DNA of 64,000 nt from Alphaproteobacteria bacterium (GCA_030696155.1 JAUYSY010000029.1:71985-135984), one strand, 5' to 3'. Numbered from the stretch's first letter, positions 3,420 through 49,421 are shown. Made by a program: numbers and translations. The notes: generated by a model not told the origin, from the letters alone.

Positions 3420-5222
3420 ATGACCACCCAAAAAGATTTTTTTTCTAAGCAAGAATCAATAAGTACTGATTCATCCCCGTGGTCCTCCTTTTTTACGCGT
3501 ATAGCAGAGCAAACGCAACTAGCGTTTAAAGCTTACCAAGAAGCGACGTCGCAAATAACATTTGACGATCCTTTGAATGTGAGACCCGCTTTTTTAGAAT
3601 TTTCACAAAAGGCTTTTTCAAACCCTGAATATCTTTTTGAAGCACAAAAAGAGCTTGTTGAAACACAATGGAATCTTTGGCAAAAATCTGTCCTTAAATT
3701 TTTTGGTGATAAACCAGAAGGTGGGCAAGAGCAATCCCAAAATCAAGACAAACGTTTTAAAGATCCTGCATGGTCTGAAAATAATATTTTTAATTTCATT
3801 AAAGAATCTTATTTTATTACATCTGAATGGTTACAAAATTCTGTTAATAACATGGATGGCATTGATCCATCCACCAAGAAAAAAGTTGACTTTTACACCC
3901 GTCAATTTGTAGACGCGATTGCGCCTACTAATTTTTTTGCGACCAATCCTGAAGTGTTACGTGAAACCATTAAAACAAATGGGATGAACATCATTAAAGG
4001 GATGGAAAATCTTGTTAAAGACTTTGAACGTGGCAATGGTAAATTGCGTATTAAAACGGTTGATCACGATCATTTTCAAATCGGTAAAAACATTGCATCA
4101 ACCCCAGGTAAAGTTATCTTTCAAACAGATTTGATGCAGCTTATTCAATATTCACCCAAAACAGAAAAAGTTGATCAAATCCCATTATTGGTTGTGCCAC
4201 CATGGATCAATAAATTTTATATCTTTGATCTATCGGATAAAAAATCATTCATTAAATGGGCGCTTGATCATGGCAAAACTGTTTTTATTGTTTCGTGGGT
4301 GAATCCTGACGATAAATTATCCCATAAAACGTTTAATTCTTACATGCAAGAAGGCATTATTGCAGCGATCGAAGCCATTATCAAGCAAACTGGCGAACCA
4401 CAAATTAACGTGGTTGGTTATTGCATTGGTGGCACCTTACTTGCCGCAACAATTGCTTATTTGACTGAAAAAAAACGAGATCTTATTAAATCAGCAACAT
4501 TCTTAACAACGCTTACTGATTTTACAGATGCAGGCGATATGAGTGTCTTTATTGATGACAAACAATTAGATCGACTCAGCAAACGTATTAATAAACAAGG
4601 CTTCTTGGATGCAGAAGCATTGAATAGAACCTATTCTATTTTACGTGCCAATGATATGATTTGGTCTTTTGTAATTAATAATTACATGCTTGGCCGCGAA
4701 CCTTTCCCATTCGATCTTCTTTATTGGAATGATGATTCAACCCATATGCCTGCAGAAATGATGACTTTTTTCTTACGTAGTATGTATAAAGAAAATTTGT
4801 TAGCAAAACCCGGTGGCATAAAATTAGATGGCGTTTCGATTGATTTAAGAGATGTTAAAATCCCTGTTTATCTTTTATCGGCGAAAGAAGATCATATTGC
4901 GCCTTGGCAAACTTGTTATACAGGCACACAGCTTTTCAAAGGTGATACACGTTTTGTGTTGGCTGCTTCCGGTCATGTAGCTGGTATGTTAAATCATCCA
5001 TCGTTGAATAAATATTGCTATTGGACAAATGAAAAATTACCAAGCAATTCAATGCAATGGTTTAAAGACGCTAAACAGGAGCAAGGTTCCTGGTGGAATG
5101 ATTGGTTAAGTTGGATTAGCAAACATGGTGGCAAACAAATTCCAGCGCTTGATCCTTCAAAAGGTAAATTAAAACCTATAGAAGATGCACCTGGTTCTTA
5201 TGTGCAGGTGAAAATGTACTAA
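3420..5222 (+). CDS. phaC: Class I poly(3-hydroxyalkanoate) synthase
   Basis: DKRFKDPAW, PPWINKFYIFDL, lipase box GYCIGG, EDHIAPW, ASGHVAG, DAPGSYV. Confidence 0.95.
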   Translation: MTTQKDFFSKQESISTDSSPWSSFFTRIAEQTQLAFKAYQEATSQITFDDPLNVRPAFLEFSQKAFSNPEYLFEAQKELVETQWNLWQKSVLKFFGDKPEGGQEQSQNQDKRFKDPAWSENNIFNFIKESYFITSEWLQNSVNNMDGIDPSTKKKVDFYTRQFVDAIAPTNFFATNPEVLRETIKTNGMNIIKGMENLVKDFERGNGKLRIKTVDHDHFQIGKNIASTPGKVIFQTDLMQLIQYSPKTEKVDQIPLLVVPPWINKFYIFDLSDKKSFIKWALDHGKTVFIVSWVNPDDKLSHKTFNSYMQEGIIAAIEAIIKQTGEPQINVVGYCIGGTLLAATIAYLTEKKRDLIKSATFLTTLTDFTDAGDMSVFIDDKQLDRLSKRINKQGFLDAEALNRTYSILRANDMIWSFVINNYMLGREPFPFDLLYWNDDSTHMPAEMMTFFLRSMYKENLLAKPGGIKLDGVSIDLRDVKIPVYLLSAKEDHIAPWQTCYTGTQLFKGDTRFVLAASGHVAGMLNHPSLNKYCYWTNEKLPSNSMQWFKDAKQEQGSWWNDWLSWISKHGGKQIPALDPSKGKLKPIEDAPGSYVQVKMY

Positions 5223-40459: not shown

Positions 40460-40580
40460 TAATTATTCATCCTACGCGTAAATTCGTCGTCAAGTCTGCG
40501 CTTCCAGTACTCATGTACTTAAGTACATTCCGTGCCGGTTCTCACCTTTCCTAGACTTTATCACATAATCTGAATAATTA
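40460..40580. repeat. Family P RPE-like element
   Basis: Perfect TIR taattattca/tgaataatta; reverse complement of the 14808 and 41500 core. Confidence 0.8.
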
Positions 40581-40718
40581 TCGGCTAAGTGTTTAGAAAA
40601 CATAATTAATAAAAAAGTGTACAAATGTCTTATCATTCCGTTCTTATTTGCATGTATCAAGTTTAATATACACGCACGAATAGAAGCGGTTACAGACTTT
40701 GTCTCATAAATCCAGTAA

Positions 40719-41486
40719 TTATGTCGATTTAAAATAGACGTCTCCTGCTGTTACTTTTATTGTTTCATTTTCTGTTTCGACGATGAGTGCGCCTTGCGTA
40801 TCCAAATCGCGAAAAATGCCTGTTAATTCTTTTTGCTCGAGCCGAATCTTGATGGGTTCATTTAGCCCTTTTGCGCGCTCTAGCCATAATTCTCTAATAT
40901 GCTGAAATCCATTTTTCAGCCAATATTCGTAAAAGAAAGATATCTTTTGTAAGATCCTATCTAACATTTTTTGTTTATCAGCATTTGCTGCTGAAACCCC
41001 ACGATCAATTAATGACGTTGCGGGCACTAAAGTCCCACTTTCTGGGAAATCCAAACAATTAAGGCCGATACCAATAATAATACCCTGTAGCTCGTTTTTT
41101 AAATTTGTATTGGCCTCAAGTAAAATGCCACACACCTTCAAATCATCAATTAATATATCGTTAGGCCATTTATACAACATTTTTGTCTTTTTGGGAAGTA
41201 TTTCTTGCAAAGCCTCACCAATGGCCAAACATATCACAAAAGAGAGCTCTGACGCTTTGGTAAGATTAACATTAGGCGTTACGCAAAGACTGAAATAAAG
41301 ATTGCCAATGGGTGATATCCATTGTCGTCCATAACGACCGCGACCGCCAGTTTGAAGATCCGATTGAACAATATATCCATGTGATTTTGTTGGATTATTT
41401 ACTAAATAATCGCGTACCACATTCATGGTGCTATCAATTTCATCATAATGGTGAATTGAAAATTCCATTATTGTGTAATTCTCCAC
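40719..41486 (-). CDS. birA: Biotin--[acetyl-CoA-carboxylase] ligase
   Basis: DSTM, QTGGRGRYGRQW, KWPND, KVCGILLE, GIGLN. Confidence 0.93.
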   Translation of the reverse strand: MENYTIMEFSIHHYDEIDSTMNVVRDYLVNNPTKSHGYIVQSDLQTGGRGRYGRQWISPIGNLYFSLCVTPNVNLTKASELSFVICLAIGEALQEILPKKTKMLYKWPNDILIDDLKVCGILLEANTNLKNELQGIIIGIGLNCLDFPESGTLVPATSLIDRGVSAANADKQKMLDRILQKISFFYEYWLKNGFQHIRELWLERAKGLNEPIKIRLEQKELTGIFRDLDTQGALIVETENETIKVTAGDVYFKST

Positions 41487-41499
41487 TTATTTGTTATTG

Positions 41500-41618
41500 A
41501 CTATCCAGATTATGTGACAAAGTCTAGAAAGGCAGAGAACCGGAACGGAATGTACCCCTTCGTACATGAGTACCGGAAACGCATGCCTGACGACGAATTT
41601 GTCCATAGGCTGGGTAGT
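41500..41618. repeat. Family P RPE-like element
   Basis: actatccag...ctgggtagt ends; closest relative of the nuoM-internal copy. Confidence 0.8.
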
Positions 41619-41623
41619 AAGCA

Positions 41624-43075
41624 TTATTGATAAACAACCAATGACGTCGCTGCCAGTCGCGCATAATGCGCTATAAAATCGGGTTTAATAAAAAAGCACA
41701 AGATAAAGACACCTGCCATAACCATAATGACTCTAAGCGTACGAGAGGACATAATGTCGAGGGATGACGTAACTTCATCAAAATACATCATTTTTATAAT
41801 ACGCAGATAATAGAATGCGGCAATAACTGATGTTACGACACCAATGATTGAAAGTGTATAAAGTTGTGCATCAATAGCGGCCATGAAGATGTATAGTTTC
41901 GCAAAAAAACCTGCCAAAGGAGGAATCCCTGCCATTGAAAACATGAAGACCGCCATTAAGAAGGCGGCGCCCGGATGAGATTTAGCGAGACCTTTTAAAT
42001 CAGCCCAATCATGAATAAGACGTCCTTGTCGTCTTAACGCTAAAACAACAGAAAATGTGCCAATGCCCATAATGACGTAAATGACAAGATAGACCAGAAC
42101 AGCCTCGATTCCTTTTTGACTGCCTGTTGCAAATCCCATTAATAAATAGCCTACATGACCTATGGAGGAATACGCTAAAAGTCTTTTGATTCCCTTTTGT
42201 TGGATAGCCCCAAAAGCACCGACCAACATAGATAAAATCGACAAAACAATAATAATTTGCTGCCATTGATGAACAAGATGGGCAAAAGGTCCTTGAATCA
42301 ATCTTAAGAAAATGGCGATGGCGGCAACTTTTGGTGCAATCGCAAAGAACGCCGTTACTGGTGTTGGCGATCCTTCATAGACATCAGGTGTCCACATATG
42401 AAAAGGAACAGCTGATACTTTGAATGAGAGGCCAACTAAAATCATGACAAGACCTAATGTGCCACCAATTGAAATCGTGGCACCTGTTTGTTTTATAATT
42501 TGATCAAGTTGTTCAAAATGAATGGATCCCGCATAGCCATAAATCAAGGAAGAACCGTAAAGCAAAAATCCTGAAGATAGAGCGCCAAGGACGAAATATT
42601 TAAGGCCCGCTTCGCTCGATCTTAATGCTTTTTTTCGGAAGGAGGCTAAAATATATAAACATAGGCTTTGAAGCTCGAGCCCCAAATAAAGTGCAATTAA
42701 ATTATTGGATGACACCATGACCATCATGCCAAGCGTCGCAAAAAGAATAAGTATTGAAAATTCAAAACGTTCTTCTTTTTCATTGCGCCAATAATTCATG
42801 GCCATTATGGTCGCAATCATTGATCCGAAAAGTATAAGAGGCTTTACAAATAATACAAAAGGATCAAGTGTAAAATGGTCTTTTAATATGTCGTTACTAT
42901 TTTTTGGTCCAAAAATTGTTAAAACAATTGCAATGGCAAATAAAGCGACGATGCATTGAGAAATAAGTCTTGATGCATTATTGCCTTTGAACGCACCTAC
43001 AATAAGTAAAACCATACCCGATATGGCGAGCAATAATTCCGGCAATAAGGGGCGTAAAATATTTACGATATTCAT
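41624..43075 (-). CDS. nuoN: NADH-quinone oxidoreductase subunit N
   Basis: [39 protein letters not shown]. Confidence 0.96.
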
Positions 43076-44820
43076 CGAATGCTCACTTTTTCTTTACTAT
43101 CCACATTATGGACAAATTCGTCGTCAAGCCTGTCAGAATTTATAAACTGGCCGGCATTCATGTACCCAAAGTACATTCCATTCCGGTTCTTGGCTTTTCT
43201 AGACTTTGCCTCATACTCTGGATAGTAATCGTTCTGAAAATCTATTGTATGTTTCGTATTATCGAAAGCCAAATTTGTTTGGTCAGGCGTTTTTAATCCT
43301 AAAACTTCCGCAACTGATTTTGTTGGGAAATGTTCTTTTGATTTGTGAAAATTCTTTATTAATTCACTCACCGTTGGATCGACCATATGCGTGAAATTTT
43401 TAGGATATATGCCCATCCAAAATACAATCAGTATTAATGGCACAAATATGCCTATTTCACGTGGACTTAAATCAAGAATAGATTTTAAATGATCCTGTTG
43501 AAGTGGTCCAAAAATAACCCGTCTATACAGATATAAAGCGTAAGTAGCGCCCAAAATAAGACCGGTGGTCGCAAATAAGGCGACCAAATTATTAACTTGG
43601 AACGATCCTAAAAGTACTAAAAACTCACCTACAAAACCGCTTGTGCCTGGCAAACCAATAGATGCAAGTGTGAAAATCATAAAGGCAATTGCGTAAAGCG
43701 GCATGCGTTCGACAAGACCGCCATAATACGAAATTTGGCGGGAATGCATGCGATCATAAACAACACCTACACATAAGAAAAGTGCTGCTGATACAATACC
43801 ATGGCTTAACATTTGGAAGATCGCACCTTGAACACCTTGTTGGGTGAGGGTGAAAATGCCTAATGTCACAAAACCCATATGGGCGACAGAAGAATAAGCG
43901 ATTAATTTCTTCATATCCTCTTGCGCAAGCGCAACAAGCGACGTGTAAATAATCGCGATAATACTAAGCGTATAGACAAAAGGCGTAAACACTTCGGTTG
44001 CATAAGGAAATAAGGGTAATGAAAATCTTAAAAATCCATAAGCACCCATTTTCAGCAAAACACCTGCTAAAATAACGGAGCCAGCCGTTGGCGCTTCGAC
44101 GTGCGCATCTGGAAGCCATGTGTGGACGGGCCACATTGGCACTTTGACCGCAAAAGACGCAAAAAAGGCAAGCCACAAATAAATCTGTAGATCATAAGGG
44201 AATGATTTTGTTAAAAGTTCTGGGATCGATGTCGTCCCCATTTGAACATAGATGGCAATGATCGCCAATAACATTAAAACAGAGCCTAAAAGCGTATAAA
44301 GGAAAAATTTAAAAGCTGCATAAACACGTCGTTGACCACCCCAAACGCCAATAATGATAAACATGGGGATTAAGACGGCCTCAAAGAAAAGATAGAATAA
44401 CACCAAATCAAGCGCTGCAAACATGCCGACCATCATGATTTCAAGTAATAAAAAACAAATCATATATTCGCGTATATAGGTTTTAATTGTTCGCCATGAC
44501 GCAATAATACAAACAGGAATAAGAAAGGTAGAAAGAAGTACAAAGAAAAGTGAAATACCATCAATACCGACAGCATATTTGATGCCTAAAGAAGGTAACC
44601 AATCTACAACATGGTAAAATTGGAATCCTTTGTGCGCAACATCAAATCCGCCCCACAAAAATAGCGACAATACAAAGGTTGTTACAGATGTCCATAAAGC
44701 GACATTTTTAATATTATGCTCAAAACGAGGGATTTGTTTAGGGACAAGAAGAATAAAGATGACACCGATGAGTGGCAAAAAAATAATTGTTGTCAACAAA
44801 ATTGGCAATTGCCCAAACAC
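43072..44820 (-). CDS. nuoM: NADH-quinone oxidoreductase subunit M with a C-terminal in-frame RPE insertion
   Basis: [37 protein letters not shown]; extended tail. Confidence 0.96.
43094..43228. repeat. Family P RPE-like element inside nuoM (135 bp, 45 codons)
   Basis: Perfect TIR ttactatcca/tggatagtaa; frame-preserving. Confidence 0.85.
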
Positions 44821-44833
44821 AAGAAATTCCTCT

Positions 44834-46747
44834 CTACATCAAAAACTTATAAATCATCCACGTCATTAATGCAAAAACGCCAAGCAGCATAACAAAAGCA
44901 TAATGATAGAGATAACCTGTTTGGAAACGACTAATGCGCAAAGAAGCATTCATGGTTAATTTTGAAATACCATCTGGTCCTAATCCATCAATAATAAAAC
45001 CATCGCCTGCTTTCCAAAAAATACGACCAATGATAAAGGATGGACGGACGAACATCAGATCATATAATTCATCAACATAATATTTATTATAGGATAATTG
45101 GTATAAAGCTTTAAATTTCCGTGCCATGATGCCGGGCAAAGTCGGTTTGAGTAAATAAAATATATAGGCCAACCCAATACCCACAAGCACGACGACAAGG
45201 GTTAGATGCTCGATAACGAAGGGCACGTGCGGATGTCCACTATGATTTGTTACAATTGATTTACCCCAAAAAGCAGCGCCCGATGTAAAATAATCAATAC
45301 CTAAGATACCTGCAAAAATAGCACCAATGGCGAGCAATATAAGTGGCATAATCATGACAAAAGGCGATTCATGAACATGTGCCATCACGCGTTCATGCGC
45401 GCGTGGCTTTCCATGGAAGGTTAAGAAAATAAGACGCCATGAATAAAATGCCGTTAATAAAGCAGTTAAAATGCCTATTGCATAAGCGAAATAACCAAGC
45501 ATATGACCATGTGCACCTGACGCAAAAGCGGATTCCAAAATAAGGTCTTTGGAATAATAACCTGCAAAAATAGGGATCCCTGCGAGCGCTAAACTGCCGA
45601 TCCACATCAAGACATAAGTCGTTGGAATTAAACGCCAAATACCACCCATTTGCCGCATGTCTTGCTCGCCCGACATGGCATGAATAACCGATCCTGCGCC
45701 TAAGAAAAGGAGTGCTTTAAAGAAAGCATGCGTCGCTAGATGGAAAATGGAGGCGTCATAAGCTGAAAGACCAGCTGCAAAAAACATATAGCCCAATTGG
45801 CTGCAGGTTGAATACGCAATAACACGCTTAATATCGTTTTGCGTCAAGGCAATGGTTGCTGCAAATAAGGCCGTGAGTCCACCGATAATCGTTACAAAAG
45901 CAAGCGTATCTGGCGCAAGTTCGAAAAGCGGCGACATGCGCGCCACCATAAAGACACCAGCTGTTACCATAGTCGCTGCGTGAATAAGCGCTGAAACAGG
46001 TGTTGGCCCTTCCATCGCATCAGGCAACCATGTATGAAGACCTAATTGAGCTGATTTACCCATAGCGCCAATAAACAGAAGGAACGTAATCAAGGTCATG
46101 GCATGAAAATCATGGCCTAAAAAATGAATAATTTTATCTTTGTGGCTTGCTGCATCCCTGAATATATCGTCGAATGAAACAGATCCAAAAATATAAAAAC
46201 ACGCAAAAATACCAAGCGCAAAACCAAAATCGCCTACACGATTGACCAAAAAAGCTTTAATGGAGGCTGCATTGGCGGTTGCTTTTTTATACCAAAAACC
46301 AATGAGCAGATAAGAAGCAAGACCAACGCCTTCCCAACCAAAGAATAATTGAAGCAAATTATTGGCAGTCACCAACATTAACATAAAAAAAGTAAAAAGG
46401 CTGAGATACGCCATAAACCGAGGGATCGACTTATCATGGCTCATATAGCCAATGGAATAAATATGGACAAGAGTTGATACAAAAGTGACGACAATCATCA
46501 TTACACAACTTAATGTGTCGAGCCTTAACGCCCACGAAACAGAAAATGTGCCTGTTTCAATCCAAGTAAAAAGAGGGATGATTGTTTCAATGCCTGAATT
46601 GCCTAAAAACAAAAAAACAGAAAGAATGGCAGAAAGGATCATCGGGATGCAGGTGGCATATTGCGCCCCTTTATCGCCTAATTGACGTCCAAATAATCCT
46701 GCAATAAGAAAACCTAGGAAAGGTAGAAAAACGCATAAAATGGCCAT
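44834..46747 (-). CDS. nuoL: NADH-quinone oxidoreductase subunit L
   Basis: [48 protein letters not shown]. Confidence 0.97.
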
Positions 46748-47982: not shown

Positions 47983-49131
47983 TTATTTTATATAAAGATC
48001 TTTTATGTTGCAGAAAGGTAAGCCTGTTTTTAGTGATGCTATACCCTCATCACCGATTTGCCCGTGCGAGATTTCAAGATATGTAAGATTTTGCATTTTA
48101 GCAATTTGAATAGCGCCTTCATTAGCGATAAGGTTGTGATTTATAAAAAGACGTTGTAAATGTCGCAATTGAGCAATGTGTGTAGCAACTTCGTTATCAA
48201 TGCGGTTAAAAGCAATAGCAAGAGAACGAAGTTTTTTAAAATTATTTAATTCTTTGATAATATTTATTTTTTCAGCAATAGGCATAGAATACAACGCACC
48301 ATTTAAGTATATAGTCTTAACATTAGGAAATTTTTGAGAAAGCAAGATGATTTCTTCTGGTGTTGGTGCAACTGAAAATATAATTTTATATACATCAAGT
48401 CTATATTCTAATTCTTGCTGTTGCTTTTGTAAAAATTCGCGCATCCAACTATCTAAACAAAAAAACGGGTTTTCAAATGAATCTGTATTTATTATCCTGA
48501 TATGCTGAAGATTTAGAGAGTTAGCCATAGAGATAATGTCATCTGTTGTTTCAAGATTCTGGAGATTTTTAAAATGAGTTAGATTTTTGATAATGTCGGT
48601 ATAATTACACTCGTTATTATCCATATCGTTAAGCTTTAGCACATAAGATAAATCTATGTTTTCAACATTAGGAAATTTTTGAGAAAGTAAGATCATTTCG
48701 TCAGGTGTTGGTCTAATCATAAATTTTAGTGATTTTATATTATACAAAGGCACTAATTCATGATCGGGATCAATTAAAAATTGACGTGTTGCACTATCAA
48801 AATAAGCCGTGCTTTTTTCATTTAAATTGAATATCCCACTCAGTCTATTGCTTAAATCAATTTCTCCTTTGTCATTTGCATCAGCAGGAATCAGTGGCGT
48901 TACAGTGTGCAAGGCCATAAGTTGTTCATTTTTTGGTAAAAATGAGACAATATGTTTGCATAATTCTCCTGAGATTAGAAAGCCTTCAATAGGCACAAGA
49001 CTTGGTGCCGAGACATAATCATTTTGACTTGACGAAGTCGTACAGGTGCTTTCATCGGCAATGTCATTACCATTTGCAAAAGCATGAATTGTTGGTGTTA
49101 ACAATAAAAATAGAACGTTCAGTGTTTTTTT
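47983..49131 (-). CDS. Secreted LRR protein with an F-box-like segment
   Basis: Signal peptide MKKTLNVLFLLLTPTIHAFA; GELCKHIVSFLP; duplicated PTP.E.ILLSQKFPNV; RI-type LRRs (NxIxxEG). Confidence 0.7.
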   Translation of the reverse strand, partial: KKTLNVLFLLLTPTIHAFANGNDIADESTCTTSSSQNDYVSAPSLVPIEGFLISGELCKHIVSFLPKNEQLMALHTVTPLIPADANDKGEIDLSNRLSGIFNLNEKSTAYFDSATRQFLIDPDHELVPLYNIKSLKFMIRPTPDEMILLSQKFPNVENIDLSYVLKLNDMDNNECNYTDIIKNLTHFKNLQNLETTDDIISMANSLNLQHIRIINTDSFENPFFCLDSWMREFLQKQQQELEYRLDVYKIIFSVAPTPEEIILLSQKFPNVKTIYLNGALYSMPIAEKINIIKELNNFKKLRSLAIAFNRIDNEVATHIAQLRHLQRLFINHNLIANEGAIQIAKMQNLTYLEISHGQIGDEGIASLKTGLPFCNIKDLYIK

Positions 49132-49421
49132 CATTTCGAATTCTTTCAATTAAATTAAAACTTACAAAAAAATCTGTAGCATATTTTTTAAAATACTACA
49201 ATAAATAAATAATAAAAAAGTTATTTATTAATATTTTTTTGTATAAAAGTATGAATATTCAAATAAATTTAATTCATTTGATGACCAAATTTTAAAAGTT
49301 GCACAAAAATTTGAAAATCTTAGCTTTTGTATGTACATTGAATAAAACTTTTTTGCATTAAATTTATTTTATACGACAGATTTAAATAATTTTTAAGCTT
49401 GTTCAATATGTTGTCATATTA

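Follow-up and report, generated by a model that had tools for sequence, protein, structure and literature searches.

A palindromic repeat element in frame in the C-terminal tail of complex I subunit NuoM of an environmental alphaproteobacterium

The question raised by this locus is whether a palindromic repeat has been inserted, in frame, into the gene of a core membrane subunit of respiratory complex I, and what then keeps the frame open. The window, i.e. the whole 64,000-nucleotide stretch of DNA that was analysed, comes from a groundwater metagenome, and its relatives are found in wastewater, biofilm and activated sludge. Its GC content is 30-40%, and the closest NuoM proteins in species genomes (65-69% identity) belong to Rhodospirillales-like or unclassified alphaproteobacterial MAGs. 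A TLC ATP/ADP translocase (55546-57057, plus strand; Pfam E = 5.5e-163) and a leucine-rich-repeat protein (47983-49149, minus) are encoded in the window. Proteins of these two kinds are hallmarks of an intracellular, energy-parasitic lifestyle, and the gene content suggests that the host is intracellular and protist-associated. Alongside the TLC translocase, the genome has retained complex I, ATP synthase and a PHA synthase (3420-5222).

The element at the end of nuoM and its siblings

The gene nuoM (43072-44820, minus) encodes the antiporter-like subunit M of complex I, 582 amino acids long, and is flanked by nuoL (44834-46747, minus) and by the coupled downstream gene nuoN (41624-43075, minus), with nuoJKLMN in the usual order. 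After nuoN come birA (40719-41486, minus) and the RNase J gene (38763-40421, minus). The protein matches NF004499, the curated NuoM equivalog model of NCBIfam, with 809.7 bits against a cutoff of 585, and Pfam Proton_antipo_M with E = 7e-92. As claimed in an earlier note on this DNA, the nuoM stop overlaps the nuoN start: TGA and ATG share an ATGA at 43072-43075 (minus), a translational coupling signal.

A 135-bp palindromic, MITE- or RPE-like element occupies 43094-43228 (minus) and corresponds to NuoM residues 531-575 (DYYPEYEAK...VHNVDS). In nuoM sense its 5' end is TTACTATCCA (43219-43228, minus) and its 3' end TGGATAGTAA (43094-43103, minus); together they form a perfect 10-bp terminal inverted repeat, with 88% complementarity over 17 nt. 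The earlier note had described this element as lying in frame and adding 45 residues to NuoM. Its coordinates and ends held on rechecking, and the peptide that it quoted is precisely what 43096-43230 encodes on the minus strand. The element ends 22 nt before the nuoM stop, and translation is not cut short ahead of it: no stop codon occurs in the nuoM frame before or inside the insert. This uninterrupted frame points to translation of the 45-residue insert as part of NuoM.

The part of the protein that would carry the insert is not conserved. The core of NuoM ends at about residue 500, NF004499 covers residues 8-497, and the tail, residues 506-582, is lineage-specific. Among solved structures the best homologue is the NuoM/Nqo13/ND4 subunit of Paracoccus denitrificans (8qby chain M, 513 aa), which matches the core, residues 8-500, end to end (E = 8e-186); this chain and the family model come to an end at about residue 497-506. 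The window NuoM runs on for about 77 further C-terminal residues, of which 45 derive from the element. A length of 503-513 aa is typical of alphaproteobacterial NuoM and of relatives; the range is 504-582 aa among relatives as a whole and 527-582 aa among the closest. An AlphaFold2 model built from 52 sequences is confident in the core (pTM 0.80); residues 510-582 have pLDDT of only 28-40 and no secondary structure in a region where the alignment is very shallow, and the tail is probably disordered. Subunit M of complex I has 14 transmembrane helices with both termini in the periplasm, and by this known topology the tail is expected to be periplasmic. The 41-45 insert residues are hydrophilic. 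The tail is hypervariable throughout this clade (527-582 aa). One more distant relative, L082 (positions 4430-4600; NuoM P0003, 576 aa, 75% identical), has a long unrelated tail that exceeds that of P0005 by about 49 residues; the idea that this tail holds a palindrome of separate origin was not accepted, its inverted repeats being weak (z = -2.1).

Sibling copies, placed by the earlier note near 14808, 40460 and 41500, were recovered with an nhmmer profile built from element copies (E = 1e-33 to 5e-38 for full copies in the window). They lie next to atpE (14807-14930, plus), in the spacer between birA and the RNase J gene (40460-40581, minus) and between nuoN and birA (41497-41620, plus), where 3 nt separate the copy from the nuoN stop. 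In total the 64-kb window holds four full copies of the family and one short remnant (33968-34022, minus), in which one terminal repeat is joined to the conserved 3' arm GACGAATTTG; the remnant has the appearance of a copy that lost its interior. Scanning the window with two core patterns returned four matches apiece, where shuffled sequence would give 0.00; one of these eight is a 3-mismatch hit at the truncated remnant. The ends of the siblings pair like the terminal inverted repeats of the nuoM copy. The intergenic siblings are 122-124 bp long in the window, and family copies overall are 122-125 bp, apart from the 135-bp nuoM version.

The nuoM element folds end to end as one imperfect hairpin (-23 kcal/mol as DNA, z = -5.2). 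Copies of the family give DNA hairpins of -17 to -23 kcal/mol, with z = -3.6 to -6 in four of five, and the RNA of the nuoM copy with its flanks (191 nt) folds at -48 kcal/mol (z = -3.9). Among nine copies compared, compensatory double changes were found in 11 of 39 consensus pairs, and therefore the pairing itself has been kept. Contig depth in the source metagenome is 9.7 in the flanks against 34-100 over the element, and in a second run 13.6 against 62-268; element depth is thus 3-20 times that of the flanks, which suggests roughly 10-20 similar copies per genome.

Several intergenic copies are free of stops in two of six frames. One of them is the frame that is read in nuoM, as with DYPDYVTKSRKAENRNGMYPFVHEYRKRMPDDEFVHRLGS at 41499-41618, and the other lies on the opposite strand (…MDKFVV…). 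With lengths of 122-125 bp, only some copies are multiples of three, and as a rough expectation about one in nine insertions of this family would read through.

Two further features were noticed near the sibling copies. The gene atpE (14928-15155, minus) has a TAA stop that forms the last three bases of the terminal repeat of the adjoining sibling, so that this copy supplies, or coincides with, the stop codon of atpE. Directly after the birA stop lies a second repeat of about 110 bp (around 40600-40715, minus), also found in L086 and L083, of which only the first 25 nt or so (TTACTGGATTTATGAGACAAAGTCT) are common to the family before the sequences diverge; it may belong to a related family or be chimeric.

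Alleles among relatives and occurrence of the family

The 90%-identity cluster of the window NuoM has six members, which were aligned. P0122 (98% to the window NuoM, 582 aa) carries the same insert with two substitutions, and P0124 (96%, 578 aa) a 41-residue version of it. P0123 and P0125 (92-93%, 537 aa) are empty, with a 45-residue gap exactly at the insert, and P0002 and P0126 (87%, 544 aa) are also empty. The earlier note had considered that orthologues without the repeat might have the same tail; P0123, P0125 and P0002 lack precisely these residues. At the DNA level, the nuoM site holds 135 bp in the window, L086 and L087 and 123 bp in L084 and L085, at identical position and in identical orientation, and it is empty in L083, L088 and L081. 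The last few nuoM codons and the ATGA overlap are common to filled and empty alleles. The 135-bp and 123-bp copies differ by a 12-nt in-frame indel, the extra nucleotides being those of the window, L086 and L087 (in the window at 43134-43145, minus, around residues FINS, with a placement uncertain by a few nt). A 13-nt insertion that would have rescued the frame was considered and rejected, as L084 has a 123-bp copy that is itself in frame and differs by this 12-nt in-frame indel. That the 45 residues are an insertion is supported by these alleles, and the empty outgroup L081 argues for gain; in principle, the empty alleles could be precise excisions rather than ancestral.

The other sites of the nuoM-nuoN-birA-RNase J region also differ in copy content among relatives, making three variable sites in all. 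The nuoN/birA junction is filled in the window, L086, L087 and L088 and empty in L081, L083 and L084. The copy in the birA-RNase J spacer is full in the window, L086, L087 and L083 and missing from L081, and in L084 and L088 the spacer contains nothing but a degenerate copy at a different position. The family is thus recently mobile, with copies at two neighbouring junctions that vary among relatives. The distributions are incongruent: the nuoM insertion is shared by the window, L086 and L084, that at nuoN/birA by the window, L086 and L088. Insertions at the two sites fit no single tree, and therefore excision or homologous recombination also occurs. The pattern implies either precise excision, possibly between 7-bp direct repeats, or a shuffling of alleles by recombination. 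In filled alleles of the nuoN/birA junction (window 41487-41626, minus) the element is flanked on either side by AATAATG, which contains the nuoN stop and the birA start, and there are about 25 extra, unexplained nt containing GGAG; empty alleles keep a direct TAATG overlap. The filled alleles also have an ORF of 45 codons that begins at the former overlapping ATG, crosses the element in its reverse open frame and stops at a TAA 18 nt ahead of the birA ATG. As for a target-site duplication of fixed length, the signs are ambiguous: AATAATG is duplicated at nuoN/birA, TA is found at both ends of three of the four copies but also extends the palindrome, and the nuoM flanks are too diverged to show one. 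A terminal-repeat search of the 64-kb window recovered short copies only and no autonomous partner with matching ends.

Recombination does occur in this region, as seen from the comparison of the window with L086: between 43444 and 46443 the divergence is mosaic, with 3.5-15% of sites differing in nuoL and the nuoM core, against 2% or less elsewhere in this otherwise nearly identical MAG contig. This pattern indicates a recombinant nuoL-nuoM core block that was imported into the complex I operon. Spread of the filled allele had been considered because its tail differs little between the window and L086, and was rejected when a sliding comparison identified the recombined nuoL-nuoM core block.

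Searches for the family elsewhere returned little. Peptides of either open frame had no match in Pfam and NCBIfam at E <= 10, in libraries whose content of RPE models is unconfirmed. Rfam has no family for the element, only a tRNA scoring above threshold in the window. The core DNA patterns gave 0 matches and 2 chance matches in 185,579 GTDB species genomes, and five chance matches in JGI metagenome contigs, none of which (0/5) was confirmed by nhmmer. No candidate came from peptide-profile and word-indexed single-peptide searches of a 90%-clustered protein collection; the profile search of this collection missed even the window NuoM, which holds the query peptide, so its negatives need caution.

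The peptide profile found five proteins among 1.84 billion representatives of 50% clusters. One is an 85-aa ORF over an element copy, another a 71-aa ORF over the intergenic copy in L083, and a third a prepilin-like gene whose call was extended upstream through an element copy; the other two are unrelated repeat proteins and were set aside. As far as these protein searches go, NuoM is the sole convincing in-frame case of the family, and they can overlook inserts in conserved proteins, for which the cluster representatives may be without the insert. The copy of the prepilin-like gene was seen in the related contig L097, where it lies at 4394-4517, directly upstream of the gene (4315-4902, with a GFTLIELL motif). 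Gene callers add 69 residues to the prepilin-like protein (P0128) upstream through the element; a GTG in the terminal repeat of the element would give a normal leader of six residues, MSSCNG, and the element may supply the start codon of this gene. In annotation, such repeats make ORFs longer and give rise to calls that are spurious or over-extended (P0127, P0128, P0130).

Constraint on the insert and alternative readings

The core of nuoM has a dN/dS of 0.02-0.04 across all relatives, and therefore nuoM is functional. The dN/dS of the insert is 0.43 in comparison with L086 (3 differences) and 0.60 in comparison with L084 (18 differences). The peptide sequence of the insert is thus hardly constrained, under a constraint that is relaxed relative to the core. 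Core dS between filled lineages is about 0.25-0.29, a span over which the filled allele has persisted. The motifs unchanged in the insert (…KSRK…, …DDEFVH…) are those kept in intergenic copies, which points to constraint on the DNA or the hairpin rather than on the protein. Among about 18 substitutions and one 12-nt indel no stop has arisen, an outcome with an estimated probability of about 0.15 under neutrality, and this weakly suggests selection for keeping the frame of the insert open. Were the insert to acquire a stop or a frameshift, translation of nuoM would be expected to cease as much as about 150 nt short of the nuoN start, and the ATGA overlap would thus offer a mechanistic ground for keeping the frame.

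These observations are very probably explained by an RPE-like, MITE-like repeat that inserted in the tail of nuoM and is read through, its peptide being a tolerated passenger. A non-autonomous palindromic repeat of about 122-125 bp would have inserted at the 3' end of nuoM in the ancestor of one sub-lineage of a low-GC alphaproteobacterium with an ATP/ADP translocase, living in groundwater and wastewater. The target would have been the non-conserved, probably disordered, periplasmic C-terminal tail, 22 nt before the stop. The inserted copy, presumably a multiple of three (123 bp, later 135 bp) and in one of the two stop-free frames, would let the frame run through the element to the ancestral stop that overlaps the nuoN start, so that NuoM would gain 41-45 residues. 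Selection would most plausibly protect the open frame, with ribosomes terminating at the ATGA and nuoN remaining translationally coupled. Both the neutrality of the insert and the argument from nuoN coupling are inferred.

A broader proposal is that the family as such has been shaped to be transparent to translation in the compact operons of what is probably an endosymbiont, targeting TAA-rich gene ends and keeping coupling by means of its two stop-free frames. The read-through of nuoM to the ATGA, the 45-codon ORF at nuoN/birA and the atpE stop taken from an element would all fit; the proposal is nevertheless unlikely. If it were true, readability in frame would be a selected property of the element and not the accident of one copy.

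Domestication of the insert, in which the 45 residues would function in the assembly or stability of complex I or in a periplasmic interaction and be kept by selection, would account for retention in frame across lineages as far apart as the core dS indicates, for a sole indel between versions that is a multiple of three, and for the preservation of terminal motifs, including DDEFVHN, between the 135-bp and 123-bp versions. It is improbable in view of the dN/dS of the insert (0.43-0.60, against 0.02-0.04 in the core), of conserved motifs that are the same as in intergenic copies and fit a constraint at the level of DNA or hairpin, of sister lineages that have the same operon without the insert, and of the predicted disorder of the region.

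The hairpin at the junction might instead be the functional part, as an mRNA stabiliser, a processing site or a coupling device for nuoN, with the peptide a by-product. Copies do gather around gene ends: one precedes the nuoM stop by 22 nt, one follows the nuoN stop by 3 nt and one overlaps the stop of atpE. The RNA hairpin of the nuoM copy is strong, and compensatory changes between copies keep the pairing. Yet copies are found in both orientations relative to transcription, close relatives that share the operon differ in whether a site is occupied, ribosomes melt a hairpin that is translated, and Rfam holds no match; a preference for TA- or TAA-rich stop regions explains the placement equally well. 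A role for the element in the RNA is improbable as well.

Insertion of a repeat that is read through, which remains the preferred explanation, also meets the objection that the source is a metagenome-assembled genome and that Logan contigs often break at the element. The filled site is found in frame in the independent assemblies L086 (an NCBI MAG), L087, L084 and L085. It is also seen ungapped in contigs that other studies obtained from two wastewater metagenomes, which excludes mis-assembly. A repeat mis-assembled into nuoM, or a nuoM that is decaying with an accidentally open frame, deserves hardly any credence when contigs spanning both unique flanks come from at least four runs and at least three studies as well as the NCBI MAG and ENA assemblies, all of them in frame, when the nuoM core is under strong purifying selection, and when the nuoJ-N genes present in the compared loci are all intact.

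Comparison with known systems

Palindromic elements within reading frames are known from Rickettsia and Wolbachia, as the earlier note had stated, and the literature agrees: RPE-1 and related families were described in Rickettsia (Ogata et al. 2000, 2002; Claverie & Ogata 2003), and protein-coding Wolbachia palindromic elements, or WPE, are reported as well (Ogata, Suhre & Claverie 2005). The further suggestion that such a process acts here on a core respiratory subunit is supported, with a likeness in behaviour rather than in sequence and with translation presumed from the open frame. Like an RPE, the nuoM element is a palindromic, multi-copy repeat in the range of about 100-150 bp in an alphaproteobacterial host, here probably an intracellular one. 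It has copies between genes and one in frame within a functional housekeeping gene, the insertion is in a region expected to be structurally permissive, and the family consensus keeps stop-free frames. Unlike an RPE, it has no match in the family models tested, through which the comparison was made, and its host is not Rickettsia. One convincing in-frame case is found here against dozens in R. conorii, and closely related alleles with an empty site exist in nature. The WPE, compared at the level of behaviour, resemble it as protein-coding palindromic repeats in another intracellular alphaproteobacterium and differ in host lineage.

Bacterial MITEs with in-frame fusions include intragenic ERIC, large BOX, QMITE1 of Coxiella and the MITEs of Anabaena (PMC10969869). 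The nuoM element shares with MITEs its small size and non-autonomous nature, terminal inverted repeats (10-17 nt in the nuoM copy) and a length that leaves no room for a transposase gene, and likewise insertion polymorphism among related genomes and fusion of its ORF with a host gene. In contrast to MITEs, its hairpin spans the whole element and not the ends alone, and no cognate transposase was identified in the search of the window. REP and BIME sequences differ from it in being imperfect palindromes of 20-40 bp, against 122-135 bp in this family. No literature was found that links palindromic elements of this kind to nuo genes. By its sequence features, the nuoM element appears to work like an RPE or a MITE and to fit no described family.

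Protein-coding palindromic repeats would thus be extended beyond Rickettsia and Wolbachia to an environmental, uncultured and probably protist-associated alphaproteobacterium, through a family that appears unrelated in sequence to the known ones and in a host gene that is among the most conserved respiratory membrane subunits. The phenomenon itself is known from Rickettsia, and the nuoM case is ordinary in principle and a clean example of it. The filled alleles of 135 bp and 123 bp, together with empty alleles in close relatives, form a natural experiment of a sort that is rarely available for RPEs, allowing estimates of how long an insert persists, of the constraint on the peptide as against the frame, and of how much C-terminal baggage subunit M tolerates.
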